DNA of 64,000 nt. It comes from Escherichia coli. Lineage in GTDB: Bacteria > Pseudomonadota > Gammaproteobacteria > Enterobacterales > Enterobacteriaceae. Below the pieces are notes generated by a model. The model was not told the DNA's origin, did not search any database, and saw only the letters and a program-made list of their open reading frames with translations. The stretch lies in assembly GCF_022846255.1 (NCBI RefSeq), contig NZ_AP025682.1; one strand, written 5' to 3'. How positions within the stretch are numbered: position 1 is the first letter of the stretch; each line of letters begins with the position of its first letter. Shown in pieces: positions 1-18,942 of this stretch. The position numbers and the translations under genes are program-made.

Positions 1-1650
1 CTGACGGTCACCGTAACGGACTGTGGTGGAAATCCGGTTGCCAATGCCCCCTTTAGCATCAGACGTGGCGATGCTATAAATCGTCAAGGAACGGTGAATT
101 CAGCCAATCCGGTTTCACTGGATTCAACGGTTTTAACCAATACCTCGACGGAATATAAAGGAACAACTGGAGAAGACGGCACGGTGAATATTGCTGTAAC
201 CCAGAAGTCTGGTGAAGGGGTGAAAACTCCATTGTATATCAGTACGACCGGGATGGTTCAGCCGATCCAGCAGGATGTTATTTTCACCGTTGTAACCAGT
301 CCGGACAGTACGCTCGCCAATATGTGGGGCCATATGCCAGAAACCCTGACTGCGGCCAATGGGACTGTATTTGCTCGCCCCAAACTTTCTGCTGAAGCTA
401 ATGGCGGTGGTGGTACACAATCTGAGACTAACGAAGTATGGGCGATATTTAACCATAAGAAAGCAATTGCATCAGGAGCGAATGCGGTTGGTTGCGGTGG
501 GATGGAATACGTTCCCAGCGAGGAAAATTTGCACTCACTCTATAGTGCATTTTCTTCGGGAAACATCAAAATCACCCAGGGATGGCCGGTTTCTGTAATC
601 TATAAGTCCTCGACACCCGACAAATATGTAACAACAGCTCGTAATTACAATGCGGTTAACCTGAGCACCAACAGTGTGAAAGGTCAGCAAACATCCAATT
701 CAGTACACTATTTAGTGTGTCAAAAAGAGGCTGCTCCTGTCATAAAATCAATAGCCATCAGCACTCAAGATTCTCAGTATGTGTCGGTAGTAGGGTTCAA
801 TGACGCCAGAGATAATGGGGGTAGAGTGAAAACTTTTGATGCCCTGAAATTAAAAACATGGGGTAAGGGCAGTGGTTCGATGACGGTTAAAGTGACGGGG
901 AGCGATAATAAGCCATTAAAAAATGGTCCGTTTATGCTGCTACACGCTCCTGGGTTTGATCGCCAGGGCGGTATACACGCAAATCATACCGACACGGTTC
1001 AGTTTAAAGATAGTCATAGCAGTAGTACGAATAGGAATATGGGGGCTATGGACGTTTATTATGGGACAACAAATGATAGCGGTGAGCTGACGTTTTCATT
1101 AAGCCAGCCGCAGGATGGAACTGGACTAGCCGTGATCATGAGTGCCCGAGATGACGATTATGTTCATAATATACTCAGTAATGATTTCCCTGTTATTTTT
1201 GCGACAGAGACGAGCCCGGATACGAAAGAAGCGAAGTATTGGGGGTATATGTCTGAAACACAAGTACTTGGTGGCAGAGTATTTAATCGTCCTAAATTGG
1301 TGAGTGAGTTACCGGTGTCTGGGGATAGTATTAGTCCTGGAGGCGCTGATGCTGAGGTTTGGGCAGGGATTTCCGGGGATGATTCTCTTGCGGGTATTAA
1401 CGGTGGCTGTGCAGCAGATAAACGACCAACAGTAGCGGAGTTAAATGATTTGCGGTCTGTATATAATACGAGTCACCAATACGGCTACTTTATGAAAGGG
1501 GGATGGCCTGCAATCGGTAAAGATACTGGGCAGAATGAATACTGGACAGATGTTGCCGAGGCGCGTTTTGGATACATGGAGATGTATTCAGGAGATGTAC
1601 ATTACATTGCGGGTGGCCTAAACACGGCAATGCAGATCTGTGCGCAGTAA
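1..1650 (+). CDS. 3' end of a giant Ig-like repeat protein (Rat-family-like); the reading frame is open from window position 1, so the gene starts upstream of the window
   Basis: Frame 1 is open from nt 1 to the stop at 1648-1650 (ORF track lists only from the first Met at 94). The translation has two Big_1-like segments and two copies of the FTV.TSPD..WG(H/Y)M..RPKL motif that recurs nine times in the 2693-aa protein downstream. Confidence 0.75.
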   Translation: MTVTVTDCGGNPVANAPFSIRRGDAINRQGTVNSANPVSLDSTVLTNTSTEYKGTTGEDGTVNIAVTQKSGEGVKTPLYISTTGMVQPIQQDVIFTVVTSPDSTLANMWGHMPETLTAANGTVFARPKLSAEANGGGGTQSETNEVWAIFNHKKAIASGANAVGCGGMEYVPSEENLHSLYSAFSSGNIKITQGWPVSVIYKSSTPDKYVTTARNYNAVNLSTNSVKGQQTSNSVHYLVCQKEAAPVIKSIAISTQDSQYVSVVGFNDARDNGGRVKTFDALKLKTWGKGSGSMTVKVTGSDNKPLKNGPFMLLHAPGFDRQGGIHANHTDTVQFKDSHSSSTNRNMGAMDVYYGTTNDSGELTFSLSQPQDGTGLAVIMSARDDDYVHNILSNDFPVIFATETSPDTKEAKYWGYMSETQVLGGRVFNRPKLVSELPVSGDSISPGGADAEVWAGISGDDSLAGINGGCAADKRPTVAELNDLRSVYNTSHQYGYFMKGGWPAIGKDTGQNEYWTDVAEARFGYMEMYSGDVHYIAGGLNTAMQICAQ

Positions 1651-1686
1651 ATTTCAATATTAGCATTATTCTTTAAATGAATGTTT

Positions 1687-1717
1687 GCCCCCATGTTTTT
1701 ACATGGGGGCAATTTTT
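1687..1717 (+). terminator. Rho-independent terminator after the upstream giant gene
   Basis: Perfect 9-bp inverted repeat GCCCCCATG / CATGGGGGC with a 6-nt loop, followed by AATTTTT, 37 nt after the stop codon. Confidence 0.7.
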
Positions 1718-1776
1718 AATACCGATAAACCTGTGCTAAAGTTTTGCCTTATTAACCGAAATCGCAGGAGACTTCG

Positions 1777-2001
1777 ATGGAAGTGCAGTGTCCGGTTTGT
1801 CATCAATCTATTGAATTACATGGCGGTAGTGCGCATTGTGAATATTGCCAACAGGATATCGCGTTTCAGGCGCTTTGCCCGGATTGTCATCAACCCTTAC
1901 AGGTGCTAAAAGCGTGCGGTGCGGTGGACTATTTTTGCCAGAACGGTCACGGATTAATTTCTAAAAAGCGTATTGAATTTTTGCCGTTTAATATCATTTG
2001 A
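1777..2001 (+). CDS. yfgJ: Small zinc-ribbon protein, YfgJ-like (74 aa)
   Basis: AGGAG 7 nt upstream of the ATG. Four CxxC pairs (CPVC, CEYC, CPDC, plus C47/C54), typical of a double zinc ribbon. Sits where yfgJ lies next to xseA in K-12; identification from memory. Confidence 0.55.
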   Translation: MEVQCPVCHQSIELHGGSAHCEYCQQDIAFQALCPDCHQPLQVLKACGAVDYFCQNGHGLISKKRIEFLPFNII

Positions 2002-2059
2002 ATATATTGTTTTATCATTTATATATTCCATGTGAATGGTAAAACAATTTCTTACTGAC

Positions 2060-2110
2060 CGCACTATTAATATAATTGAGTATGAACAATCATGTATAAT
2101 GTTTAAGAAT
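2060..2110 (+). promoter_or_regulatory. Candidate sigma70 promoter region for sinH in an AT-rich intergenic stretch
   Basis: TATAAT hexamers at 2071-2076 and 2095-2100, the second preceded by TG; no well-spaced -35 found. AT-rich spacer 2002-2200 upstream of the sinH start. Confidence 0.25.
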
Positions 2111-2200
2111 ATATTTAGCCTTTTCTGTCGTGCTATCCCGGATGTTCTGGAATAGAATGGCAGAATTCATTTTTGACTTTATTGTCAATAGGGAAAAGGT

Positions 2201-4375
2201 ATGCTGCGATGGACACGCTGTATTATGCTAACATTTATCTCTGGGGCTGCTTTTGCGGCTCCAGAGATAAATGTTGAGCATAAAGAATCATTACCTGATT
2301 TAGGTAGTCAGGCCGCACAACAAGAAGAACAAACCAACAAGGGGAAATCGCTAAAAGAGCGTGGTGCCGATTACGTCATTAACTCCGCCACGCAAGGGTT
2401 TGAAAACTTGGCCCCTGAGGCGCTGGAATCTCAGGCCAGAAGCTATCTGCAAAGTCAAATCACCTCAACCGCACAATCTTATATTGAAGACACACTCTCT
2501 CCCTACGGTAAGGTCCGTTCGAACCTCTCCATTGGTCAGGGCGGCGATCTGGATGGCAGTTCCATCGATTATTTTGTTCCCTGGTACGATAATCAAACCA
2601 CTGTTTATTTCAGCCAATTTTCTGCACAACGAAAAGAAGATCGTACGATCGGGAATATTGGGCTTGGTGTAAGACATAATTTTGATAAATGGTTGTTGGG
2701 TGGAAATATATTTTATGATTATGATTTTACCCGTGGGCATCGCCGTTTAGGTTTAGGTGCCGAAGCGTGGACTGATTATTTAAAATTCTCTGGCAACTAT
2801 TATCACCCGCTTTCTGACTGGAAAGACTCCGAAGATTTCGATTTTTATGAGGAGCGTCCTGCGCGCGGCTGGGATATTCGCGCCGAAGCCTGGCTTCCCG
2901 CTTATCCGCAGCTTGGTGGTAAAATTGTTTTCGAACAGTATTACGGTAATGAAGTCGCGCTTTTTGGCACTGATAATCTGGAGAAAGATCCCTACGCGGT
3001 AACGCTTGGACTGAATTATCAACCAGTGCCGTTACTGACAGTTGGGACGGACTATAAAGCGGGGACCGGAGATAACAGTGATGTCAGCATTAATGCCACT
3101 CTTAATTATCAGTTTGGCGTTCCGCTAAAAGATCAATTGGATAGCGATAAAGTGAAAGCGGCGCACTCGCTGATGGGCAGCCGTCTTGATTTCGTTGAGC
3201 GTAATAACTTTATTGTTCTGGAATACAAAGAAAAAGATCCGCTTGATGTCACCCTGTGGTTGAAAGCGGATGCCACCAACGAGCACCCTGAGTGCGTCAT
3301 TAAGGACACTCCCGAAGAAGCCGTCGGTCTGGAAAAATGTAAGTGGACCATTAACGCACTCATTAATCATCACTACAAAATCGTTGCGGCCTCCTGGCAG
3401 GCGAAAAACAATGCTGCCCGCACGCTGGTGATGCCGGTTATCAAAGAGAATACTCTGACAGAGGGTAACAATAACCACCGGAACCTGGTGCTGCCTGCCT
3501 GGCAGTACAGTTCCGATCAAGCCGAACAAGAAAAACTCAATACCTGGCGGGTTCGTCTGGCGCTGGAAGATGAAAAAGGCAATCGGCAGAGCTCCGGTGT
3601 GGTGGAAATCACCGTTCAACAGGACCGTAAAATTGAGCTCATCGTTAACAACATCGCCAATGTACCGGATAAGAGCAATCACAGCCACGAAGCCAGCGCA
3701 CAGGCCGATGGTGTAGATGGTGTAGTGATGGATCTCGATATTACTGATAGCTTTGGCGACAACACTGACCGCAACGGTAATGTCTTGCCGCAGGATAATC
3801 TCAACCCGCAGTTGTTTGATGCCAACGATAAAAAAGTGACGCTGACGAATAACCCCTGCACTACCGAGACTCCCTGTGTCTTTATCGCCAAACAAGATAA
3901 AGAAAAGGGGACCGTTACGCTCTCCAGTACGTTGCCTGGCACCTTCCGTTGGAAGGCGAAAGCTGCTCCCTATGATGACAGTAACTATGTTGACGTAACG
4001 TTCCTGGGTTCTGACATCGGCGGGCTGAATGCCTTTATCTATCGTGTTGGTGCGGCTAAGCCCGTGAATCTTATCGGCAATAAAGAACCGTTGCCTCTCA
4101 ATAGCAGCTATCGCTTTGTGTTGTGGCGTGACGCTAACAAAGACGGCGTGTTCCAGCTATCAGAGAAACTCACTGAAGAGGAGATGAAACAGTATGACTA
4201 TCAGTGGGAATTCACGGGACATAGCGTGAATGGCAATACCGGTGCGCAAGCCAATACCACTAACGTCGATATAGAGATCCCGGCAACGAACAAGGAAGCG
4301 GCAGCGAAGTTTAGTGCCCAGGTAACCGATGGCGTGCAGGGATACGGTTTGCAGGTCAATTACAGCAAGAAATAG
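2201..4375 (+). CDS. sinH: Inverse autotransporter adhesin of the intimin/invasin family (SinH-like), 724 aa
   Basis: N-terminal signal peptide (…FISGAAFA/APE). Residues ~110-330 show intimin/invasin beta-barrel-type sequence (DYFVPWYD, LGLGAEAWTDYLKFSGNYYHPLSDW, GWDIRAEAWLP, LGLNYQP), followed by an Ig-like passenger. RBS GGAAAAGG upstream. Confidence 0.85.
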   Translation: MLRWTRCIMLTFISGAAFAAPEINVEHKESLPDLGSQAAQQEEQTNKGKSLKERGADYVINSATQGFENLAPEALESQARSYLQSQITSTAQSYIEDTLSPYGKVRSNLSIGQGGDLDGSSIDYFVPWYDNQTTVYFSQFSAQRKEDRTIGNIGLGVRHNFDKWLLGGNIFYDYDFTRGHRRLGLGAEAWTDYLKFSGNYYHPLSDWKDSEDFDFYEERPARGWDIRAEAWLPAYPQLGGKIVFEQYYGNEVALFGTDNLEKDPYAVTLGLNYQPVPLLTVGTDYKAGTGDNSDVSINATLNYQFGVPLKDQLDSDKVKAAHSLMGSRLDFVERNNFIVLEYKEKDPLDVTLWLKADATNEHPECVIKDTPEEAVGLEKCKWTINALINHHYKIVAASWQAKNNAARTLVMPVIKENTLTEGNNNHRNLVLPAWQYSSDQAEQEKLNTWRVRLALEDEKGNRQSSGVVEITVQQDRKIELIVNNIANVPDKSNHSHEASAQADGVDGVVMDLDITDSFGDNTDRNGNVLPQDNLNPQLFDANDKKVTLTNNPCTTETPCVFIAKQDKEKGTVTLSSTLPGTFRWKAKAAPYDDSNYVDVTFLGSDIGGLNAFIYRVGAAKPVNLIGNKEPLPLNSSYRFVLWRDANKDGVFQLSEKLTEEEMKQYDYQWEFTGHSVNGNTGAQANTTNVDIEIPATNKEAAAKFSAQVTDGVQGYGLQVNYSKK

Positions 4376-4430
4376 GATCAGCGCCATGGCTGATCGGGCC
4401 ACCGCTGAATGTTAACCAAGGAGAGTGTTT

Positions 4431-5423
4431 ATGAAACCTCATATGAAACGTGGCCTGACAAAAGTCGCGCTGGCGCTGATGCTGGCTGGATACTGTGCCG
4501 TGCCAGCCGCTATGGCGGAAGATGCCGCCTGGGTAGACAGTGGGACGACCGCTGAATTCGAAGGGACCATACCCTGGCTTTATCGCGAGGGGGGGAATGC
4601 CACGATTAACTCGGATGATGCGGATCACATCAAAGTAACGTCTGATGGTAAAGGTACTCGTCCTTCAGGTAGCGAGACGGATAAACGCCTTTACTCAGGA
4701 GATACCATCACGTTGGGGTGGGATATCGGCGATACCGAAGGGGATATCGACGATGGTCCAGATGGTATTGATGCGAAAACGACGGCGACTATCAAATGGT
4801 ACAGCTACAGCGATAATGCGGGTGGCGGTAAAACGGAGCTGACCGCAGCGGCGGGTAAGACGAGTTATAAACTCACTGATAACGAACGTGGGCGCTATAT
4901 CGGTGTTGAAATCCAGCCTATCACTCAGACCGGTAATCCCTTCCAGGGAACGTCGCTGACTCTGCTGGATATCTCAACGGCCAGCGGTGGCGGCAGCGAT
5001 ACGGACAATGTTGATCCTGGCCCGGTTGTGAACCAGAACCTGAAAGTCGCCATCTTCGAGAAAGGCACCAGTACCAACCTTATCGGTGGTAATACAGCCA
5101 TTGCGCTTAACAAAACGTATGTGGCCAAACTGTACTCGGATGAAAACCAGAACGATAAGTACGATGCGGGTACGGATGTGGACGTTACCGCTAACTATGA
5201 CTTTGCATGGGTCTTTAACGGTAACAGTAAACAACTTGCTGCGGCGGGTGGTATTGCCAACGCCAGCTTCGATAACAATGACATTGTTATTCCGCAAACT
5301 AACGAACAAGCAAGAGCCAGCCTTAACGGTAGTGACCGTAATGGTAAGACCGGTCTTGCAATCCCGGCAAACGGCGACGGCGTCCAGGGCTATACGCTGT
5401 CTATCATTTACAAACACCACTAA
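4431..5423 (+). CDS. sinI: Secreted protein of unknown function (SinI-like by position), ~330 aa
   Basis: AAGGAG 7 nt upstream of the ATG at 4431 (ORF track starts at the GTG at 4425). Signal peptide (…AVPAAMA/EDAAW). C-terminal DGVQGY motif shared with SinH; N-terminal W…G.T.EF.GT.P motif shared with the giant protein. Symbol assigned from synteny only. Confidence 0.7.
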   Translation: MKPHMKRGLTKVALALMLAGYCAVPAAMAEDAAWVDSGTTAEFEGTIPWLYREGGNATINSDDADHIKVTSDGKGTRPSGSETDKRLYSGDTITLGWDIGDTEGDIDDGPDGIDAKTTATIKWYSYSDNAGGGKTELTAAAGKTSYKLTDNERGRYIGVEIQPITQTGNPFQGTSLTLLDISTASGGGSDTDNVDPGPVVNQNLKVAIFEKGTSTNLIGGNTAIALNKTYVAKLYSDENQNDKYDAGTDVDVTANYDFAWVFNGNSKQLAAAGGIANASFDNNDIVIPQTNEQARASLNGSDRNGKTGLAIPANGDGVQGYTLSIIYKHH

Positions 5424-5431
5424 TGCGCACC

Positions 5432-5462
5432 AACAGCATTCCCGTATGGGAATGCTGTTTTC
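5432..5462 (+). terminator. Intrinsic terminator or attenuator between the sinI-like gene and the giant gene
   Basis: Inverted repeat ACAGCATTCCC / GGGAATGCTGT with loop GTAT, followed by TTTTCC, 9 nt after the stop codon. Confidence 0.45.
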
Positions 5463-5533
5463 CGCCTGTTTTGCTTAGCGACGCGTTAAGCAAAACGGGT
5501 TGACGTTTTGTTTATCATGCTGGAGTTTTCTAC

Positions 5534-8500
5534 ATGTCGGTATGTCTGAAACCAGGAAAAATCATTGTGCTTCTGGGCATGTTGGCAGCCTTTATGCTGT
5601 CTGACTTTGCACGGGCAGGAGTGGAATGGCAGACATATCCTGGTTCTACAGGCGAGTTTAACGGTACAGTTCCTATTGCCGATAGCGCCAGCGTACCCGT
5701 CTATCAGGGAAGCGTTCAGCTTGATCCTGCTGCATCTCATGATGTGGCGTTTTCTGCTAAACCGAATGAATTTAGCGTTGACGATGACGCTGCTAACCTG
5801 ATAGTCGCTAATCCTCAGGACAGTGAAGGCGACCAGTTTTCCACACCACCTGCGCTGCGCTGGGAAAAACAAACGCCGCCGACCGTTAGCCTGGTGTGGG
5901 CCGATGCCGCCACGCCGGATACGCCGCTTAATCCACAGCCTACCGCCAACCGTAGCTTTTGCGCTCAGGGCCTGGCCGGGCGTTCGCTGGTGGCCTGGCC
6001 GCAGATTGATGCGCAGCAGACCATTCCACTGCTTTATCTGCTGACTTCGACCGGTTATCCCTATGAGGGGACGGTGGCGCTGGCTGACCAGAAAGTGACG
6101 CTGAACATCGCGCCCGCGCAGGGCGATTTAATCTCGGTGAGCGCCAGTGGTTATAACGAAACGATCGCGGCGGCGAAAACCACCGTTGGTGACACCATCA
6201 CGCTAACTGTTACCACCAAAGACTGTCAGGGCAACGTTGCGGGCAATATTCCTTTTATTATCAAACGACAGGATGCGAAAAACCGCCAGGATGCGGTGAA
6301 TAACACCGCACCGGTGGTGCTGGATAGCACCGAGTTAACGACGACCGCGACCGAGTATCACGGCACATCGGATGCCAACGGTACGGCAACCATCACGGTG
6401 ACCCAACCTAATGGGCCCGGCGTCAAAACGCCGCTGGTGGTCAGCATCTCCGGCATTGCGCAAACCAGTGAGACGGCGGTTATTTTTACCGTACTCACCA
6501 GCCCGGACGTGGCGCAGGCCACGATGTGGGGCCATATGGCGGAAACGGTTGAGGCTCATGGCTACACGTTCAGCAGGCCAAAACTGGCGGCAGAAGTCAG
6601 CAATGAAAATGCCACGGTCGTCGATCACAACGAAACCTGGTCAACTTTCACCTGGAGCGGGGCAGACAGCCATTGCACCGTGCTGCCGGGCATGCGCCAT
6701 TTCGGCGCACTGGCGACCGTTATTCCCACCACGGTACAGACTGTCCTCGGCTGGCCGATGCAGGATGATTATTACTGGACATCGCTGGCGGGCACTACCG
6801 GGCAGCACCATGCGGCGGATGTCTCTAACCGTGCTGAAGCGCAAAAGCCGGATAGCACCACGTTTCTTGTAAGCTGCGTGGACAAACCCGCGCCTGACGT
6901 CGAACCGAAAATCGTCCTTACGCCAGAAAACTATGATGATACGGCACAGGCGATGAAAGCGAAGGTGGGTGAGGACGCCACGATGCGTCTGACGATCACC
7001 GACAATAAAAACAACGATCAACCGCTGGCGTATTACTACTTCTCGCTGCATCTGGATGACGGCGTTAACCGCAAAAATCAAACCGATCCTGCCTGGGAAG
7101 CTCATCCGGTACAGATTGCTGGCGGCAGTAATTTTCGCCAGGTCGACGCACATACCTATGAGGGCATGACTGATGTCAACGGTCAGGCTTCGCTAACCCT
7201 GAGCCAGCCTGGTGGCGCGGGCGTTAAAACTCACATTACGGCGAAAATGCGCAGCGATTTTAACGCCACGGATGCCAAAGATGTGATTTTTACCGTAATC
7301 ACCAGCCCGGACAGCGACAAAGCGCGGATGTGGGGCCATATGCGCGGCATTATTGAGTCCGGCAGTCTGTATAAACGCCCGTTGCTGGCGGATGAAACCG
7401 AGCATGAACTGGGAACAGTGCGGGAAAACAACGAAGACTGGGCGTTGTACGATCAAAACACCAGTATGCAGGCGGAATGCGGGGTGGGTCATATACCGCG
7501 CCAGAGCTCACTGGAAAGCCTGTTTTCAGCCCATCCCGGTAACGCGATTGGCACTGAGTATGGCTGGCCCACCGCACAACAGAGCTACCTAAGCGCGGTG
7601 GAGCAAGAAACGCATTCATCGGTGAATCTGGGGAACGGGAGCGTCGACAGCTATTCCGGCTTTAAGCAGAATTACCTCTCCTGTTCGGGTAATGAGATGG
7701 TAGCGAATGTTGAAGTCAGCACCGATCATGATGTGTCTGTTGGCACCCAAGCGCAAGCCAAAGTGGGTGACACCATCGTAATGACCGTGCGTACGATTAA
7801 CTCGCTAAATAATTCCCCGGTACCCTTTAGCGCATTCACCATTACCAAAGGTATGGGATATAACCGAGCGGGACAGGTGAGCGGGTTTGATGACCCGAGT
7901 AGCGGCGCAATCACGATGGATAACTCGCAATATGGTACATCACAGCCATCGATGGTTTATGCGGGAACAACCGATGTCCGGGGCGTGGCGACGGTCGAGA
8001 TTAAACAACCGCAGGGCGTCGGGCTAAGAACGGCGCTGAGCGTAACGCCGGTAAATTCCTACCTGCCGAATACCGTTAACTACAGCGTTATTTTTACCAC
8101 CCCAACCAGCCCGGATGTTTCCGGCGCGCAGATGTGGGGCCATATGGATGAAACGATTACCGTTGATTCATCAACCTTTAGCCGGCCTAAGCTGGCGGCG
8201 GAAATCGCCAGCCCGGACGGAACCCTGACCGAAAATAACGAAATCTGGGCGCGCGTGAGCCAGGCCAATACGTCCAGTACCAGCAAAGGCGGCTGCGGCA
8301 CCAATATGCTGCCGCGTCGCTCCCAGCTAAGCGCGTTGTATAGCGCCAACAGTGGTAACGCGGTGCAAACGACGCACGGCTGGCCAACGCAACGTCAGCC
8401 CTACTGGAGCAGCTCACCGGCGGATGTGACACCGCACTTTTTCACGATAGCGCTGAACGATGGCGCGCAGGCCATCGGCGGCAATACGCCGGTTTACGTC

Positions 8501-11500
8501 AGTTGCCTGACGACGGCGAACAAGCCTGCCAGCAGCATTACGCTGGAGGTGGTTGATAAAGCGCAATGGAATGCGGGGAATAACGCGGCAAAGCTGAAAA
8601 AAGGTGAGACACTACAGGTTAAAGTGACAGTAAAAGACTCGCAGGGTAACGCGTTAGCGGATATGCCATTTACCCTCAGTCGCGGTGATGGCTATACCCG
8701 TAGCGGCGAAAAACATATTGCCGGTAGCGGCGATGCGCTGGTAGCGCCCGTGGTGGTCAATGGCGGGTTGGCAGATGAAACAACGTTGAATGACACTGCA
8801 ACGGTGTATACCGCCATGACCGGCAGCGACGGCAGCAAAATCCTTAATATTACCCGCCCGGATACCCACGGCACCAAAACGGCGCTGACGGCAACGCTTT
8901 ACTCCGATGCGACGAAAAAAGACAGCCTGGACACGATCTTTACGGTGGTTACCAGCCCGGATAGCAGCCAGGCGAAAATGTGGGGGCATATGCCGGAAAC
9001 GGTGACGGCTGAGGACGGTACGGTCTTTAAACGCCCGCGGTTACTGAAGGAACTGAGCAGTCAGACTGGGCGAACATCAACGCTTGAAGACAACGAAAAC
9101 TGGGCGTTGTTTAACATTAATTATGCGAGCTCTTCCACGACGTATAGTGGCTGTGGAACCAACTATATTCCAACTCAGGCTGGTCTGACGTCACTGTTTG
9201 CTAATAATGCGGGCAACACCATGAAAACCGTGCAGGGCTGGCCGGTGGCAACGCGCTATTTGTCCAACACGTCCGACAATGGCAGCATGGAGCAGCGTAA
9301 CTACAAGGCGGTCGATCTCAGCAATGGCACGAGTGCGGCAGTGTCATCAACGGCGCTGCAACTGCTGACCTGTCAGACTACACCGGTAACCACGGTGAGC
9401 CAAATCCTGCTGGAAGCGGCAGATCCGGCGACGCTGGATACCACCTATAACGTGGTAAAAGCGAAAAAAGGCGAAGAATCCGTGGTGCGCGTCACCACCA
9501 AAGATGCACAAGGCAACCTGGTGGGCAATACGGCATTTATCCTGACGCGTGCCAACAGCGTGAGTCGGGCTAATGCATCAGCGACGATGAGCGTGGGCTC
9601 GTTGACGGTGACGGATGCCTGGGGCAATACGCGAAATAATTTCCAGTCGACAAGTGAAACCATTTACGGCGTGACCGGTGCTGATGGGGCAACGACATTG
9701 ACCCTGAAACAGGATAACAGTACCGGGTTAAGAACCGATCTCACGGCAAAACTGGATACGTCCAGCAGCGTCAAGGCAACGCTACCGGTGGTCTTTACCG
9801 TCGTGACCAGCCCGGATTCGCCAAAAGCGAATTTTTGGGGACATATGGCCGAAACGGTGGCGGCCTCCGATGGCTCGGTTTATAAGCGACCATTGCTGTT
9901 TGGCGAACTGACCAACAACTATGCGCGATATAGCACGCTTGAGAACGGAGAAAGCTGGGCAAGATTCACCTCGACTCAGTCGATTGACACCAGCATGAAT
10001 GGGTGTGGTACAGATTATATGCCGACGCTGGATGGTCTGAAGTCTTTGTATGACGCCAATAGCGGTAATGCGATGAATACGGTGCAGGGATGGCCGGTAA
10101 ATACGAGTTATCTCACCAACACCCCGAGTGATACACAAGCAGGGAGCCGTTACTACAATGTGGTGCAACTGAATTCTGGCGCGGTTTCGCAAATCGTATC
10201 CACAGTGCTGGCGTTACAAACCTGCCGCACGACGCCGTTGACGACTGCCAGCCAGATTACGCTGGAAGCCGCGGATCCTGCGCAGTTTGTCAGCATTGAT
10301 AGTACGCTTAGCGCTGTCAAAGCGAAGAAGGGCGATGAGGTGTCGATCCGCATTTCGACTAAAGATGCGCAGGGGAATTTAGTCGGCAATACGCCGTTTG
10401 CCCTGAAACACGCGAACTCGATCAATCGTCAAAATGTGACGTCATCGCAGAAAGTGTCGGTCACGACTGCAGCGGGTACGACGGTGGATACCAGTGCAGC
10501 GACCATCCTGTATGGCGTAACCGGGCCAGACGGAACGACGACGATGGCGCTCCGACAGGATGCGTCCACCGGACTACGAACCGACTTTTATGCCTTGTTG
10601 AACGATACCGGCGTGTCGTCGGGCACCTTGCCGGTGATCTTTACCGTTATCACCAGCCCGGACACGCCGCTGGCGGCCAACTGGGGCCATATGGCGGAAA
10701 CCTTTACCAGCAGCGAAGGCGTTACCTTCAAGCGGCCTTTCCTCAAAGCTGAACTTTCCGGCGGTACGGCGAAAACGGTCAATAATGAAGTCTGGTCGCT
10801 CCTGACATCGACTGAGAAAGCGGACGCCAGCAAGGCCGGGTGTGATGAGGCGTATCAACCGCAGACGACAGACATGCAGGGGCTGTATGCCGATTATCCT
10901 AACGGCCAACTGGCAACGGTGCTCGGCTTGCCGACTGCCGCCGGGAACTGGTGGGATTATGACATGATGGCGGCAGTGAGCAATAGCTGGAGTTACCAGG
11001 TGTTTTCGCCGGGTAATGGCCAAACGATTCAGGCATCGTCCGGCTATACGGCGGTAGTGATGTGTCTGGTAAAACCACATACGGAAGCGGCCACAATAGA
11101 GATTACCTCGACGGCGCAGGACGCAGCAAAATCGGCCAGTAATGGTGGACGACCGAGCGCCGTAGCGAAGAAAGGTGAGACGATTCCGTTGACGGTGACC
11201 GTGCGTGATAGCGCCGGGAACCCGATGCCATATGCCGACTTTACCCTCTCGCGTGAAACGACGCTGGATCGCTCGAAAACAGCTGTTAACAGTGCGGTGG
11301 ACGATCTTACCGTAACGGCATTGGTACCGGCGAACAGGGATAGCGTGTTGACAGCGAGCGGAGCAAAAACTCTCGCAACGACGGGCAGCGATGGCACTGC
11401 CACCTTTGAGGTGGGGCAGTACTCTACGACCGGGCTGGCGACGCCGTTAACCGTGACGCTGGCGCGTGATACGACGAAAGCTGCCACGCTGGATGTTATC

Positions 11501-13615
11501 TACACGGTGATCACCAGCCCGGATTCGCCGAGTGCGAAATTCTGGGGGCATATGCCAGACACCTTTACCAGCTCGGCGGGCGTCACCTTCAAACGGCCGT
11601 TGCTGAAAGCCGAAGCGACGTCAGGCTCATCAATTAGCACTAACGGTAACGGTGAAGTGTGGGCGTATATGAGCAACTTGCAAAATTTAACATCGACAGA
11701 TTGCCCGCTGGAGTATCAGCCGCGCAGCAACGAGCTGTTGGATTTATATAGCGATCACCCGAACGGCGCGATAATGACTGACCTGGGGCTACCGATATAT
11801 GCAGGCAAGTGGTGGGCTTATGATATGGTCATGCCGGATTTATATACGTGGCAGTATCAGACTGTCAGCCTGAGCACCGGAGATATCGCGAAGAGCTCGT
11901 CAACCAACGCGCTGATGCTTTGCCTGACGAAGCCGCATCCGGCAGGCGTCAGCGTAATGTTGACGTCATCCGCAATGGATAACGCCAGAAGCCTCAGTAA
12001 TGGCGGGCGACCTAGCGCGTCAGTGAAAAAAGGCAACCCACTGCCAATTGTAGTGACGGTCAAAGATCGTGATGACAACCCGCTGGCGGGAGAGGCCGTG
12101 ACGCTCAGGCGTGGTTCAGCGATGAGCCGTTCAGGAGCAGTAGTGGGCACGCCGGCAAATGCAATGACGTTGACAGAGTTGACACCCGTGTCGGCGGAGT
12201 TTTCTCTGGCCGCACACGATACGCAATGGCAAGGTTTCACCGGCAGTGATGGTACGGTCACTTTCAATGTTGAACAGCCTGAGACCATCGGCCTGGCCAT
12301 CCCGTTCACCGCTATACTGGCGCGAGATGTGGCAACCACAACTGTCCTTGATGCGATCTTTACCGTCGTCACCAGCCCGGATTCCACAATGGCGACCTAC
12401 TGGGGTCATATGCCGGATACGGTCACGGCGGAAAACGGCGTGGTCTTTGAACGGCCTAAATTGTTGAAAGAGTTGCCGTCGAGCACCGGAATTAGTCAGG
12501 TGACGGATAACAATGAAGTCTGGCCGCTGTTTAAGGCAACGCAAAGGGAAGATAGCAGCCTCAGTCCTTGTGAAGCGGCGCGTCGGCCATTGAGCGATGA
12601 TTTAGAATCGCTCTACGCGCGCTATCCGGGGAACACGCTGACGACACAAATCGGTTGGTCTACGCGGTATACATGGTGGGCGCTGGATAACTGGCAGGGG
12701 AATGCCCAGGTTGTTAGTCTGAGTGATGGCTTAAAGTGGTCGACGGTGAATACCGCGTATCAAGGGTGTCTGGTTAACCCGCGCGCGACGGTCTCCAGCG
12801 TCACGCTGACATCAACGGCGCTGGATGACGCCACACAGGCGGCGACGGTGAAAAAAGGCGACGCCGCGCCCATTGTCGTTACCGTAAAAGACAGCGCCGG
12901 GAAGCCGGTGCCAAATATCGCTTTTACCCTAAAACGCGGTGAGGCCGTGCCACGTAACAGCGGGGCGACGCTGTATGGCGATGTGGATGCGATGGACGAT
13001 TTGGCCGTGCAACCTTCATCCGGTGCGGCAGTCACGTTGGCTGACAGCGGAAATACCATCGACGGAGTCACGGGAGCGGACGGTACGGCAAGCTTTACCG
13101 TTCGTCAGGATAATACGCCAGGATATAAAACGCCGTTGACGGTGACGCTAACGGATAACGCCACCATAACGGCGACGCTGGACACGATTTTCACCGTGCC
13201 GACCAGCCCGAATGTCGCCACGGCGTATTTCTGGGGTCATATGGCGGATACCGCCACGGTAAGTGGCAAGACGCTGCATCGCCCGCTATTAAAATCGGAG
13301 TTGCCGTCAGGCGCTACCGCAGCAGCAACGCCTGATGTAAATAATGAAACCTGGGCGCTGGCGCATGTTATGGATTCCTCTAAATGGGATGTCGCGCAGC
13401 AGTGCGGCAGTATGAATAACGTGCCGAGCAGTGCCGAATTACAAACATTACACTCCGGCTTTAGCACATTGGGATGGCCGTCCTCGATAAGCTTCCCGTA
13501 TTTATCTACTGATAAGGCTGGGTCGTTCTATTGTGGTGTTGATGAAGGCTCTGGCAGTCTCAACTGTGGCATTCAGCCTGCGAAAACGCCGGGGTTTGCA
13601 ACCTGTTTCCAATAA
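5534..13615 (+). CDS. ratA: Giant secreted Ig-like repeat protein (RatA-like), 2693 aa
   Basis: GGAG 6 nt upstream of the ATG. N-terminal signal peptide (…[11 protein letters not shown]), no lipobox Cys. Nine tandem ~280-aa modules, each with a Big_1-like segment, an (I/V)FTV.TSPD…WGHM…RP.L motif and a Cys-pair segment. No beta-barrel-like region recognised. Confidence 0.85.
6170..13500 (+). repeat. In-frame tandem array of nine coding modules inside the giant gene (period ~800-860 nt)
   Basis: The TSPD/WGHM motif recurs at about nt 6500, 7300, 8110, 8950, 9810, 10650, 11515, 12370 and 13205. DNA copies are diverged, with pairs 4/5 and 6/7 most alike. Confidence 0.75.
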
Positions 13616-13645
13616 CCTTATCCACCTTGTCAATATGAGGTTCTG

Positions 13646-15197
<1,552 letters not shown>

Positions 15198-16664
15198 ATG
15201 CTACGTATCGCTAAAGAAGCTCTGACGTTTGACGACGTTCTCCTCGTTCCTGCTCATTCTACCGTTCTGCCGAATACTGCTGACCTCAGCACCCAGCTGA
15301 CGAAAACTATTCGTCTGAATATCCCTATGCTTTCCGCAGCAATGGATACCGTAACGGAAGCGCGCCTGGCTATTGCTCTGGCTCAGGAAGGCGGTATCGG
15401 CTTTATCCACAAAAACATGTCCATTGAACGCCAGGCAGAAGAAGTTCGCCGTGTGAAAAAACACGAATCTGGCGTGGTAACCGATCCGCAGACCGTACTG
15501 CCAACCACGACGCTGCGTGAAGTGAAAGAACTGACCGAGCGTAACGGCTTTGCTGGCTACCCGGTTGTTACCGAAGAAAACGAACTGGTCGGCATTATCA
15601 CCGGTCGTGACGTGCGTTTTGTGACCGACTTGAGCCAGCCGGTTAGCGTTTACATGACGCCGAAAGAGCGTCTGGTAACCGTGCGTGAAGGCGAAGCCCG
15701 TGAAGTGGTGCTGGCAAAAATGCACGAAAAACGCGTTGAAAAAGCGCTGGTGGTTGATGATGAATTCCACCTGATCGGCATGATCACTGTGAAGGATTTC
15801 CAGAAAGCGGAACGTAAACCGAACGCGTGTAAAGACGAACAAGGCCGTCTGCGTGTAGGTGCAGCGGTTGGCGCGGGCGCTGGTAACGAAGAGCGTGTTG
15901 ATGCGCTGGTTGCCGCAGGCGTTGACGTTCTGCTGATCGACTCCTCTCACGGTCACTCTGAAGGTGTTCTGCAGCGTATCCGTGAAACTCGCGCTAAATA
16001 TCCTGACCTGCAAATCATCGGCGGCAACGTGGCAACTGCTGCAGGTGCCCGCGCGCTGGCAGAAGCCGGTTGCAGTGCCGTTAAAGTGGGTATCGGCCCT
16101 GGTTCTATCTGTACGACGCGTATCGTGACTGGTGTCGGTGTTCCGCAGATCACCGCCGTTGCTGATGCAGTAGAAGCCCTGGAAGGTACCGGCATTCCGG
16201 TTATCGCTGACGGCGGTATCCGTTTCTCAGGCGATATCGCTAAAGCTATCGCCGCTGGCGCAAGCGCGGTGATGGTAGGTTCCATGCTGGCAGGTACTGA
16301 AGAATCTCCGGGTGAAATCGAACTCTACCAGGGCCGTTCTTACAAATCTTACCGTGGTATGGGTTCCCTGGGCGCGATGTCCAAAGGTTCTTCTGACCGT
16401 TACTTCCAGAGCGACAACGCTGCCGACAAACTGGTGCCAGAAGGTATCGAAGGCCGCGTAGCCTATAAAGGTCGCCTGAAAGAGATCATTCACCAGCAGA
16501 TGGGCGGCCTGCGCTCCTGTATGGGCCTGACCGGCTGTGGTACTATCGACGAACTGCGTACTAAAGCGGAGTTTGTACGTATCAGCGGTGCGGGCATTCA
16601 GGAAAGCCACGTTCACGACGTGACCATTACTAAAGAGTCCCCGAACTACCGTCTGGGCTCCTGA
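15198..16664 (+). CDS. guaB: IMP dehydrogenase
   Basis: Translation from the ATG at 15198 ([16 protein letters not shown]…) gives the 488-aa GuaB; the ORF-track start at 15129 is an upstream in-frame Met. Confidence 0.95.
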
Positions 16665-16732
16665 TTCTCTTCGCCCGACTTCATGTCGGGCGATTTATAT
16701 TATCTGTTTCACTTGCCTCGGAATAAGCGTCA

Positions 16733-18310
16733 ATGACGGAAAACATTCATAAGCATCGCATCCTCATTCTGGACTTCGGTTCCCAGTATACTCAACTGGT
16801 TGCGCGCCGCGTGCGTGAACTGGGGGTTTACTGCGAACTGTGGGCGTGGGATGTGACAGAAGCACAAATTCGTGACTTCAATCCAAGCGGCATTATTCTT
16901 TCCGGCGGCCCGGAAAGTACTACTGAAGAAAACAGCCCGCGTGCGCCGCAGTATGTCTTTGAAGCAGGCGTACCGGTATTCGGCGTTTGCTATGGTATGC
17001 AGACCATGGCGATGCAGTTGGGCGGTCACGTTGAGGCTTCTAATGAACGTGAATTTGGCTACGCGCAGGTTGAAGTCGTAAACGACAGCGCACTGGTTCG
17101 CGGTATCGAAGATGCGCTGACCGCAGATGGTAAACCGCTGCTGGACGTCTGGATGAGCCACGGCGATAAAGTTACCGCTATCCCGTCCGACTTCGTCACT
17201 GTAGCCAGCACCGAAAGCTGCCCGTTTGCCATCATGGCCAACGAAGAAAAACGCTTCTATGGCGTACAGTTCCACCCGGAAGTGACTCACACCCGCCAGG
17301 GTATGCGCATGCTGGAGCGTTTTGTGCGTGATATCTGCCAGTGTGAAGCCCTGTGGACGCCAGCGAAAATTATCGACGACGCTGTAGCTCGCATCCGCGA
17401 GCAGGTAGGCGACGATAAAGTCATCCTCGGCCTCTCTGGTGGCGTGGATTCCTCCGTAACCGCAATGCTGTTGCACCGCGCTATCGGTAAAAACCTGACT
17501 TGCGTATTCGTCGACAACGGCCTGCTGCGTCTCAACGAAGCAGAGCAGGTTCTGGATATGTTTGGCGATCACTTTGGTCTGAATATTGTTCACGTACCGG
17601 CAGAAGATCGCTTCTTGTCAGCGCTGGCTGGCGAAAATGATCCGGAAGCAAAACGTAAAATCATCGGTCGCGTTTTCGTTGAAGTATTCGATGAAGAAGC
17701 GCTGAAACTGGAAGACGTGAAGTGGCTGGCGCAGGGCACCATCTACCCTGACGTTATCGAATCTGCGGCGTCTGCAACCGGTAAAGCGCACGTCATCAAA
17801 TCTCACCACAACGTGGGCGGCCTGCCGAAAGAGATGAAGATGGGGCTGGTTGAACCGCTGAAAGAGCTGTTCAAAGACGAAGTGCGTAAGATTGGTCTGG
17901 AGCTGGGCCTGCCGTACGACATGCTCTACCGTCACCCGTTCCCGGGACCAGGCCTCGGCGTTCGTGTTCTGGGTGAAGTGAAGAAAGAGTACTGTGACCT
18001 GCTGCGCCGTGCTGACGCCATCTTCATTGAAGAACTGCGTAAAGCGGACCTGTACGACAAAGTCAGCCAGGCGTTCACCGTCTTCCTGCCAGTACGTTCC
18101 GTTGGCGTAATGGGCGATGGTCGTAAGTATGACTGGGTTGTCTCTCTGCGTGCTGTCGAAACCATCGACTTTATGACCGCACACTGGGCACATTTGCCGT
18201 ACGATTTCCTCGGTCGCGTTTCCAACCGCATTATCAATGAAGTGAATGGTATTTCCCGCGTGGTGTATGACATCAGCGGCAAGCCACCAGCGACTATTGA
18301 GTGGGAATGA
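16733..18310 (+). CDS. guaA: GMP synthase (glutamine-hydrolysing)
   Basis: 525-aa ORF with an N-terminal glutamine amidotransferase part (…GVCYGMQ…) and an ATP-pyrophosphatase part (SGGVDSSV); 68 nt after guaB. Confidence 0.95.
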
Positions 18311-18334
18311 TTTGACTCTGCACTATGAATGAAC

Positions 18335-18365
18335 AAAACCCTCTGTTACTACAGAGGGTTTTTTA
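18335..18365 (+). terminator. guaBA rho-independent terminator
   Basis: AACCCTCTGT / ACAGAGGGTT stem with loop TACT, followed by TTTTAT. Confidence 0.7.
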
Positions 18366-18402
18366 TACTCACGAATCATAGGATTGAAGTTACTAACATC
18401 GA

Positions 18403-18942
18403 TTAATTAAACCAGCTATCTGATTTATTCTCTTCTGCTTTACCCACGCTTTTCATCAGATCGCGACCGCCTTCAGTCATATTTCTGTTTGCGTCAGCTT
18501 CAGATTGCACCACATCGGTTTGCGCAGCTTTGTGCTTCAGTTCCTGATCGATAAATTCGTTTTCGCGCTTAACGCGGGCTTCTTCTTTCGCCAGCGCCAG
18601 TTTTTGTTTCTGAATCTCTAAGCTGCGTAGCTCATCTTCATAACTTTGATCGCGTTTTTTGTCCGCAGTGGCTTCGGCGTCCAGTTTATCCTGACGAGCT
18701 TTCTTATTCGCTGCTGCCGTTGCCGCTCTTTTATTAGCCGCGGCCTGGGCGTTTGCGCGACGTTGCTTCTCTTGCTGGATTTCCCTGTTGCGCTCCGCGA
18801 CCCATTCGTCATGCTGCCTTTGCTCTTCATTTTTACCTTGCTGTTCCGCTTCTGCGACAGCCGAGAGTTGATCCTGCAATGATGAGGCGATAGCCGGATA
18901 GCTTAAGGAGGCTAAGATGGTGCAAAGAAAAACTTTCTTCAT
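18403..18942 (-). CDS. yfgI: Periplasmic coiled-coil protein YfgI
   Basis: 179 aa with a signal peptide and a highly charged, Ala/Lys/Glu/Gln-rich body; K-12 synteny. Confidence 0.8.
   Translation of the reverse strand: MKKVFLCTILASLSYPAIASSLQDQLSAVAEAEQQGKNEEQRQHDEWVAERNREIQQEKQRRANAQAAANKRAATAAANKKARQDKLDAEATADKKRDQSYEDELRSLEIQKQKLALAKEEARVKRENEFIDQELKHKAAQTDVVQSEADANRNMTEGGRDLMKSVGKAEENKSDSWFN

Follow-up and report, generated by a model that had tools for sequence, protein, structure and literature searches.

The open reading frame at 2201-4375 on the plus strand of this 64,000-nucleotide stretch of Escherichia coli DNA (the window) raises the question of what surface protein it encodes and how that gene relates to the adhesin genes around it. 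It had been read in a first-pass annotation as an inverse autotransporter of the intimin/invasin family standing at the head of an adhesin cluster. We find that 2201-4375 is an intact sinH (iatB) gene encoding an intimin-like type Ve inverse autotransporter that is already known and ordinary, and that the sole unusual feature is a second, divergent three-gene adhesin cassette just upstream. The explanation we favor, with a probability of roughly 85%, is that SinH is a type Ve surface adhesin whose gene opens a sinH-sinI-ratA-like operon, the operon being in turn the second of two tandem cassettes.

The frame runs uninterrupted for 724 codons and a TAG stop, and its ATG is the first start codon past the preceding stop and follows the purine-rich sequence GGGAAAAGG. 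We assigned families by score against curated NCBIfam cut-offs and domains by Pfam scan. The SinH equivalog model NF033423 matches the 724-residue protein with 1474.2 bits against a cut-off of 999, over 1-724 of the 730 model positions. The translation is identical to an E. coli GenBank protein annotated as SinH (WP_244331708.1 / BDH32458.1) and 94-96% identical to many SinH proteins of E. coli and E. fergusonii. Together with the barrel matches described below, the family score bears out the reading as a SinH-type member of the intimin/invasin family.

The features needed for type Ve secretion can be followed along the protein. Its N-terminus, MLRWTRCIMLTFISGAAFA followed by AP, appears by eye to be a Sec signal peptide, as the first-pass annotation had also read it, in which a basic n-region leads into a hydrophobic stretch of ~13 residues and A-x-A occupies positions -3/-1, so that residues 1-19 (2201-2257) would be removed by cleavage after AFA. 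Orthologues of SinH keep this layout, and the alignment to the SinH HMM already starts at residue 1. The Pfam domain IAT_beta (PF11924) spans residues 62-336 (E 1.1e-107), and when full-length SinH was searched by sequence against the PDB only barrels were matched, that of invasin (4E1T) aligning with residues 101-343 (E 3.3e-73) and that of intimin (4E1S) scoring E 6.6e-63. These full-length alignments to solved structures place a 12-stranded beta-barrel translocation domain and its linker at residues 101-343 (2501-3229), N-terminal to the passenger. The earlier proposal of an intimin/invasin barrel is correct in kind; its size had been put at ~220 residues, slightly too few because the Pfam and 4E1T alignments span about 243-275 residues.

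No domain was found by Pfam in passenger residues 344-724, and a homologue search with the passenger alone returned mostly fragments. We used an AlphaFold2 model of the passenger (residues ~343-724) built on an alignment that included relatives of 31-41% identity (mean pLDDT 77.2), having discarded a first model based on 18 close sequences (pLDDT 60.5). It predicts three mostly-beta domains, each a beta-sandwich, at residues 343-484 (3227-3652), 494-604 (3680-4012) and 608-724 (4022-4372), the third with pLDDT of about 80-89. Foldseek returned 133 PDB matches at E<=1e-3 for the passenger model, with arrays of Ig-like domains on top, among them PrgB, intimin D00-D0 (6TQD, E 7e-8) and invasin (1CWV, E 8.6e-6); Ig-like fold matches were obtained for domain 1 and Foldseek matches for domain 2. 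A published AlphaFold2 analysis divides the SinH passenger into three Ig-like domains in the same way (PMC9937491). The model is thus consistent with the C-terminal passenger of Ig-superfamily-fold domains that had been proposed, less firmly for domain 3, where the term Ig-like is weakest because the published TM-scores of this domain against invasin and intimin domains are just 0.41-0.45 (PMC9937491). Domain 3 has a homologue in the C-terminal domain of SinI, the product of the following gene, as indicated by the NCBIfam SinI model (SinH residues 618-721, E 2.5e-23), blastp and alignments. It also bears the terminal DGVQGY motif pointed out in the first-pass annotation, at residues 710-715 (4328-4345). 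Nearly all of the aligned SinH and SinI sequences keep this motif intact; G, Q and G never change among them, and at D, V and Y substitutions are confined to between one and three sequences for each position.

Downstream, the locus has the composition expected of the SinH family. Following sinH are sinI (4431-5423, plus strand), which encodes a 330-residue secreted protein without a barrel (NCBIfam NF040711, 370.7 bits against a cut-off of 165), and a gene for a RatA-like giant adhesin of 2693 residues (5534-13615, plus strand; NF011844, 5431 bits against 3870) with nine BIg21 and nine InvE_AD stretches recognized by Pfam. By synteny, xseA (13669-15036, minus strand) forms the right-hand boundary of the island, and its 3' end is still divergent, with 88-92% identity to a B2 reference. 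Upstream of sinH lie an AT-rich presumed promoter or regulatory region (2002-2200, 42% GC), in which sigma-70-like matches were not above chance in a promoter scan, and a yfgJ-like gene for a 74-residue zinc-ribbon protein (1777-2001, plus strand; Pfam Zn_ribbon_6). The gene thus occupies the yfgJ-xseA island position together with a Rat-like adhesin, and the order yfgJ-sinH-sinI-adhesin-xseA is shared with E. coli AR_0013 and ABU 83972. We therefore agree with the first-pass annotation that this is an adhesion island rather than a novel system, namely the known sinH-sinI-ratA-like locus adjoining xseA.

The claim that sinH heads the adhesin cluster fails at the left end of the window. Positions 1-1650 (plus strand) hold the 3' part (518 codons) of a gene for a 772-residue short Rat-like adhesin with Pfam BIg21 and InvE_AD domains, closed at 1685-1712 by a strong intrinsic terminator-like hairpin of 12 bp followed by TTTTT. 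The locus can be followed further upstream on a contig (L024) that agrees with the window letter for letter along 14,375 nt, where the order is der - orf57 - 731-residue inverse autotransporter - 311-residue SinI-like protein - 772-residue Rat-like protein - yfgJ. Because this complete SinH-like/SinI-like/Rat-like cassette lies upstream of yfgJ, sinH heads the second cassette only. In this strain two paralogous cassettes stand in tandem on either side of yfgJ, that of sinH coming second, with all three genes full-length in each, and the upstream SinH is 71% identical to the one in the window. This tandem double-cassette layout was found in 0 of 5,426 complete E. coli genomes.

Comparison with known loci shows where each cassette belongs. 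The window protein falls in the same equivalog family as SinH (SivH) of the Salmonella CS54 island and IatB/SinH of extraintestinal E. coli (the 'ila' locus; SMS-3-5, CFT073, ST131), with which it shares the signal peptide, barrel, three Ig-like domains, sinI, Rat-like adhesin and xseA-adjacent site; its 724 residues compare with 724-725 in the E. coli SinH loci read. Its amino-acid sequence is 96% identical to the AR_0013 allele, and at the DNA level the window allele reaches at most 93.4% identity to any of the 5,426 complete genomes, a divergence unlike that of the flanking 46 kb, which are 99.4% identical to B2 E. coli. An origin in another Escherichia species, which the best E. coli match of 93% to the island had at first suggested, was rejected on account of this flanking identity and because proteins exactly matching those of the window are deposited as E. 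coli. What sets it apart from known SinH/IatB loci is the tandem arrangement with a 71%-identical SinH cassette. The upstream cassette has the gene order and position, on the der side of yfgJ, found in EPEC E2348/69 (sinH, 734 residues - sinI, 318 residues - 760-residue adhesin - yfgJ - xseA), with 94% identity between the inverse autotransporters of the two. E2348/69, however, has the upstream-type cassette only, whereas the window strain has the ordinary one as well. The best complete-genome relative of the upstream cassette, an E2348/69-type strain, gives 86.6% DNA identity at 67% query cover, and for the 3' part of the short Rat gene only 16% of the length is matched in E2348/69, at 69.8%. 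The 5' half of the intervening yfgJ-like gene is akin to the E2348/69-type allele, and similarity to ordinary sinH loci reaches back from the right to position 1867.

The junction between sinH and sinI contains the stem-loop that had been noticed earlier, with arms GATCAGC (4376-4382) and GCTGATC (4389-4395), a 6-nt loop and no T-run afterwards on the plus strand. Its stability alone is unremarkable relative to shuffled sequence (z = -0.91), and 1600-5700 contains no match to any Rfam family. Across 15 orthologous loci from four genera, the 6-bp core of the stem is paired in 94% of alignment cells and has compensatory changes at three base pairs. An alternative outer stem, pairing 4378-4383 with an invariant CGCTG(A) at 4405-4410, is 95% paired but, its 3' arm being invariant, shows no pair altered on both sides; it is a possible alternative to the 4376-4395 hairpin, not a replacement for it. 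Because it has no T-tract, the hairpin permits read-through, and there is no plus-strand intrinsic terminator between the two genes. The suggestion that sinH is co-transcribed with the next gene agrees with this and with PMC12525524 and PMC11420993, both of which cite Shea 2022 for co-transcription of sinH and sinI in E. coli CFT073 and for a fitness defect of a sinH mutant. A ribosome-binding site for sinI, AAGGAG at 4418-4423, is conserved in both cassettes, and the hairpin may determine how stable the sinH and sinI segments of the mRNA are in relation to each other.

By homology and modeling, the Sec signal peptide would be followed by a short periplasmic stretch without a LysM domain and then by the intimin/invasin-type barrel, which would insert into the outer membrane; going by the family, the passenger would thread through its own barrel as a hairpin, assisted by BAM/TAM. 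At the surface SinH would act as an adhesin and biofilm factor that aids extraintestinal colonization, with domain 3 as the likely binding module. Published work on IatB of SMS-3-5 located the passenger on the cell surface by immunofluorescence and found that the protein promotes biofilm in the absence of SinI, that adhesion to extracellular-matrix proteins was not seen, that native IatB was undetectable under laboratory conditions, and that iatB transcription depends on LeuO (PMC6714894). A vaccine based on the SinH passenger protected mice (PMC9937491).

The other readings of the locus differ in what they take SinH to do. A true intimin or invasin, binding Tir or an integrin, would be the simplest, and it is highly improbable. 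Both proteins of EPEC/EHEC and Yersinia, respectively, have a homologous barrel and an Ig-like passenger in the inverse (type Ve) order, but beyond barrel homology nothing favors such an identity: the NCBIfam intimin model gives 243 bits, far below its cut-off of 1400; SinH has no LysM domain, sequence-recognizable Big_1 repeats or C-type lectin tip by Pfam; its terminal domain, common to SinI, differs from theirs; and sinH lies in the yfgJ-xseA island, with no LEE context. The idea that sinH is intact yet redundant or silent here, as one of two paralogues subject to H-NS-type silencing and heading to decay, is unlikely too. The first-pass annotation had named an interrupted frame in related strains as an argument against its reading, and such frames do occur: in other strains with the upstream cassette the resident sinH is frameshifted by a one-base deletion in a G-run (GGGG to GGG), splitting it into 156 and 560 residues, strain E69 carries IS1 within sinH, and premature stops were counted in 26 of 334 E. 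coli sinH sequences of a published set (PMC9937491). The native protein was also undetected in SMS-3-5 (PMC6714894), and the 5' region of sinH is AT-rich (42% GC). However, the window copy is intact and both cassettes here keep three full-length genes each, and up-regulation of sinH in human urinary tract infection has been reported, as has a requirement for the gene for fitness in mice (PMC9937491). What interrupts the frame in relatives is the commonplace decay of adhesin genes, and it leaves the window copy untouched.

A reading with more in its favor, though we still consider it doubtful, is that SinH works mainly like ZirT, exporting or anchoring SinI and the RatA-like adhesin instead of, or besides, being an adhesin itself. 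In the Salmonella ZirT-ZirS-ZirU system an inverse autotransporter is likewise followed by barrel-less secreted proteins that share the Ig-like domain of its passenger, and this two-partner hypothesis has already been published (PMC4943183, PMC6714894); ZirT has no sequence-level match to SinH in family scans. None of the 15 orthologous loci, which come from four genera, lacks the sinH-sinI-rat triad, and both cassettes of this strain keep it as well. SinI and Rat each begin with a signal peptide and contain no barrel or anchor domain, and SinI shares homology in its C-terminal domain with domain 3 of SinH, so the likeness includes co-encoded barrel-less proteins sharing an Ig-like domain with the passenger. 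Directly after the signal peptide, SinI and Rat share the motif W-x(5-6)-[ST]-T-x-x-[IFL]-x-G-T-x-P, whose T, G and P are invariant in 32 of 32 sequences and whose variants match by locus, 'EF' occurring in both proteins at some loci and 'I' in both elsewhere. This shared N-terminal motif would fit the published idea that SinH exports or anchors both proteins. Yet the locus-matched variation amounts to one or two independent lineage splits, so that a permutation p of 0.0004 overstates it, and an hhalign probability of 89.8% for the SinI and Rat N-termini is partly due to the signal peptides. IatB reaches the surface and forms biofilm without SinI (PMC6714894), and, as argued in PMC4943183, solved inverse autotransporters have the pore of their barrel blocked by their own linker. 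A literature search found no evidence on SinI or Rat secretion. Somewhat more speculative still is the proposal that the triad is a secretion-and-display cassette in which the motif is a putative tag for the cognate SinH, the adjacent cassettes of this strain, with 'EF' and 'I/L' tags, would be a possibly orthogonal pair of type Ve two-partner systems, and the mutually exclusive pairings of the hairpin tune the translocator:cargo stoichiometry.

We therefore retain the type Ve surface adhesin as our reading of SinH. Because SinH is an established colonization factor of ExPEC and Salmonella and a current vaccine antigen, recognizing sinH here adds nothing new in itself. The divergence of ~4% at the protein level from the nearest annotated alleles and the presence of a 71%-identical second SinH bear on the breadth of vaccines directed at SinH domain 3. 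The covarying hairpin, and the motif that SinI and Rat have in common at their N-termini, provide cheap handles on the long-standing proposal of a two-partner inverse autotransporter. Finally, the occupation of both alternative insertion slots beside yfgJ shows how recombination can pile up adhesin islands.

The gene at 2201-4375 on the plus strand is genuine, an unbroken frame of 724 codons from ATG to TAG. The first-pass annotation had placed it as a SinH-type inverse autotransporter (IAT) in an adhesion island, and this reading holds: the product aligns over its whole length with the NCBIfam SinH equivalog at 1474 bits (cut-off 999) and reaches just 243 bits on the intimin model (cut-off 1400), and the downstream sinI (4431-5423, plus strand; 370.7 bits, cut-off 165) and RatA-like adhesin gene (5534-13615, plus strand, 2693 aa; 5431 bits, cut-off 3870) both exceed their own thresholds. 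Minus-strand xseA, then guaB and guaA, lie 3' of the RatA-like gene, an order matching the annotated sinH island of E. coli AR_0013 and ABU 83972. The identical database protein is E. coli SinH (WP_244331708.1 / BDH32458.1), with neighbour proteins BDH32454-32460 on a 4.94-Mb contig, and its identity to numerous annotated SinH proteins of E. coli and E. fergusonii is 94-96%. The sinH finding is right, and it was previously known.

Read directly from the sequence, the SinH N-terminus (MLRWTRCIMLTFISGAAFA then AP) has the typical layout of a Sec signal peptide, and 15 orthologues share it, in agreement with the signal peptide predicted earlier. The Pfam IAT barrel model PF11924 spans residues 62-336 (E 1.1e-107), and residues 101-343 match the full length of two solved barrels, that of Yersinia invasin (4E1T, E 3.3e-73) and that of EHEC intimin (4E1S, E 6.6e-63); the hallmark barrel is therefore present, at about 243-275 residues rather than the ~220 first proposed. 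A Pfam scan of residues 344-724 found no domain. HMMER, run exhaustively over 1.84 billion representatives, found only 53 relatives, and the passenger type is therefore narrowly distributed. AlphaFold2 on a shallow alignment gave a poor model (pLDDT 60.5); with relatives at 31-41% identity and SinI C-terminal domains added to the alignment, mean pLDDT rose to 77.2. The modelled passenger consists of three mostly-beta domains (residues 343-484, 494-604 and 608-724) joined by short low-confidence linkers. Foldseek comparison with the PDB yielded 133 matches at E <= 1e-3, headed by Ig-like arrays, namely PrgB, intimin D00-D0 (6TQD, E 7e-8), Sap S-layer, antigen I/II, NCAM and invasin (1CWV, E 8.6e-6), so the model favours the C-terminal Ig-like passenger that had been suggested. 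A published AlphaFold2 analysis of SinH delineates the same three domains, with domain 3 at residues 602-724 and weaker fold scores for it (TM 0.41-0.45) (PMC9937491).

The passenger does end in DGVQGY (residues 710-715, nt 4328-4345), and in every SinH and SinI looked at DGVQGY-x-L-x-h-x-Y makes up the last strand, its G, Q and G being invariant while D, V and Y each differ in one to three of the aligned sequences. The SinI HMM matches SinH residues 618-721 (E 2.5e-23), and in blastp SinH shares 37% identity over 122 residues with the upstream SinI and 30% with the SinI of its own cassette; judged by these alignments, SinH domain 3 and the SinI C-terminal domain are homologous. The likeness was earlier noted by Kingsley 2003, according to PMC4943183. 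In three database proteins (P0047, P0051, P0048) the barrel and first passenger domain of SinH are fused to other modules: two (1616 and 902 aa) continue into Rat-type BIg21/InvE_AD repeats, and the third (701 aa) into what appears by eye to be a classical autotransporter beta-domain. Such proteins could have arisen by deletion or could be chimeras of assembly.

The gene had been thought to head the adhesin cluster, but it does not: 1-1650 is the 3' part of a further gene for a BIg21/InvE_AD adhesin. A public contig (L024), identical to the window over 14,375 nt, shows the layout der - orf57 - IAT (731 aa) - SinI-like (311 aa) - Rat-like (772 aa) - yfgJ, followed by SinH (724 aa) - SinI (330 aa) - RatA-like (2693 aa) - xseA. 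The upstream cassette between der and yfgJ is complete when window 1-1650 is combined with L024 1-7800. Between the two cassettes of the strain, identity is 71% for the IATs, 35% for the SinI proteins and about 35% for the Rat proteins. EPEC E2348/69 differs in having only the upstream-type cassette, which lies to the der side of yfgJ and encodes an IAT 94% identical to the upstream one. Relatives of this cassette at 80-90% DNA identity occur in only 19 complete genomes, and both cassettes together in 0 of 5,426 complete E. coli genomes. A strong intrinsic terminator (1685-1712, 12-bp stem then TTTTT), directly 3' of the upstream Rat-like gene, is predicted to separate the cassettes transcriptionally. 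Within the zinc-ribbon gene yfgJ (1777-2001) the 5' half is of E2348/69 type (MEVQCP...) and ordinary sinH-locus similarity begins at 1867, which suggests a recombination junction inside yfgJ joining the two cassettes. We regard the tandem second cassette as a modest, testable addition.

The window belongs to E. coli, its 18.3-64 kb part being 99.4% identical to B2-phylogroup genomes, whereas the sinH island finds no match above 93.4% identity among the 5,426 complete genomes. Because the divergence continues into the 3' end of xseA, the island was acquired or replaced via recombination. Across 1867-18700 the match to B2 E. coli is a mosaic; against ABU 83972 identity is 88-92% in the xseA 3' end, 99.8% in guaB and 96-98% in guaA. 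This mosaic marks a recombination import reaching past the island. Both sinH copies are intact in the window strain. Interrupted frames in relatives, set beforehand as a test, are present in some: several further strains with both cassettes have a 1-bp deletion in a G-run of their resident B2-type sinH, read as loss of one G from GGGG in three contigs (L026, 16162-18338; L029; L030), two more (L031, L033) have identical split gene calls of 156 + 560 aa, and in E. coli E69 sinH is broken by IS1 (L017, 10666-11435).

Between sinH and sinI, the stem-loop described earlier (GATCAGC, 4376-4382; GCTGATC, 4389-4395) is present and lacks a plus-strand T-run, and the AAGGAG ribosome-binding site of sinI lies at 4418-4423 (plus strand), 5' of the start at 4431. 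The 75-nt junction alone folds no better than shuffled sequence (z = -0.91). We aligned the spacer from 15 orthologous sinH-sinI loci of Escherichia, Pseudocitrobacter, Citrobacter and Superficieibacter; the 6-bp core is paired in 94% of cells, three of its pairs show two-sided compensatory changes (A-U to G-C twice, C-G to U-A), and it scores higher for covariation than any of 500 shuffles or any slid control. An alternative helix, mutually exclusive with this one, joins the shared 5' arm to an invariant CGCTG(A) at 4405-4410 and pairs equally well, but with zero two-sided changes. A hairpin also lies at the corresponding position in the upstream cassette but is unrelated, and an Rfam scan of 1600-5700 matched no family. 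A plus-strand terminator scan of the spacer found none, compatible with the co-transcription that had been proposed and that is stated in a review citing Shea 2022 (PMC12525524). We infer an intercistronic stability or processing element rather than a terminator, and the covarying hairpin is a modest, testable addition.

SinI and Rat of every locus share a motif directly after the signal peptide, W-x(5-6)-[ST]-T-x-x-[IFL]-x-G-T-x-P, with T, G and P invariant in 32/32 sequences; it lies at about 4524-4577 in SinI (residues 32-49) and about 5618-5674 in the RatA-like protein (residues 29-47). Profile-profile comparison of SinI with Rat gives 89.8% probability, partly owed to the signal peptides. 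Variants are matched by locus (SinI 'AEF-GT' with Rat 'EFNG', SinI 'TIQGT' with Rat 'AINGT'), the window cassette being of 'EF' type and the upstream cassette and other genera of 'I/L' type. Same-locus exceeds cross-locus motif identity at a permutation p = 0.0004, which overstates the evidence because just one or two lineage splits are involved. SinI and Rat-like proteins have been hypothesized to be SinH substrates, as in ZirT-ZirS-ZirU (PMC4943183; PMC6714894), and the absence of a barrel or anchor from both would fit this; a literature search for experimental tests of it found none. The motif, in a Rat N-terminus termed 'highly divergent' in that literature (PMC4943183 / PMC6714894), may act as an address tag in export that depends on SinH, a modest but testable addition.

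Immunofluorescence located the SMS-3-5 allele product on the surface, and this allele promotes biofilm without SinI, and LeuO raises transcription of the gene (PMC6714894). CFT073 sinH mutants are less fit in urinary tract infection of mice (PMC11420993), and passenger-based vaccines are protective in mice (PMC9937491; PMC12525524). Homology, the model and the published allele localisation suggest that SinH would be exported by Sec, then insert its N-terminal barrel in the outer membrane and then show its three-domain passenger on the surface. As in the family, the passenger would probably thread its own barrel as a hairpin with help from BAM/TAM, and SinH would act as an adhesin with domain 3 as its binding module.
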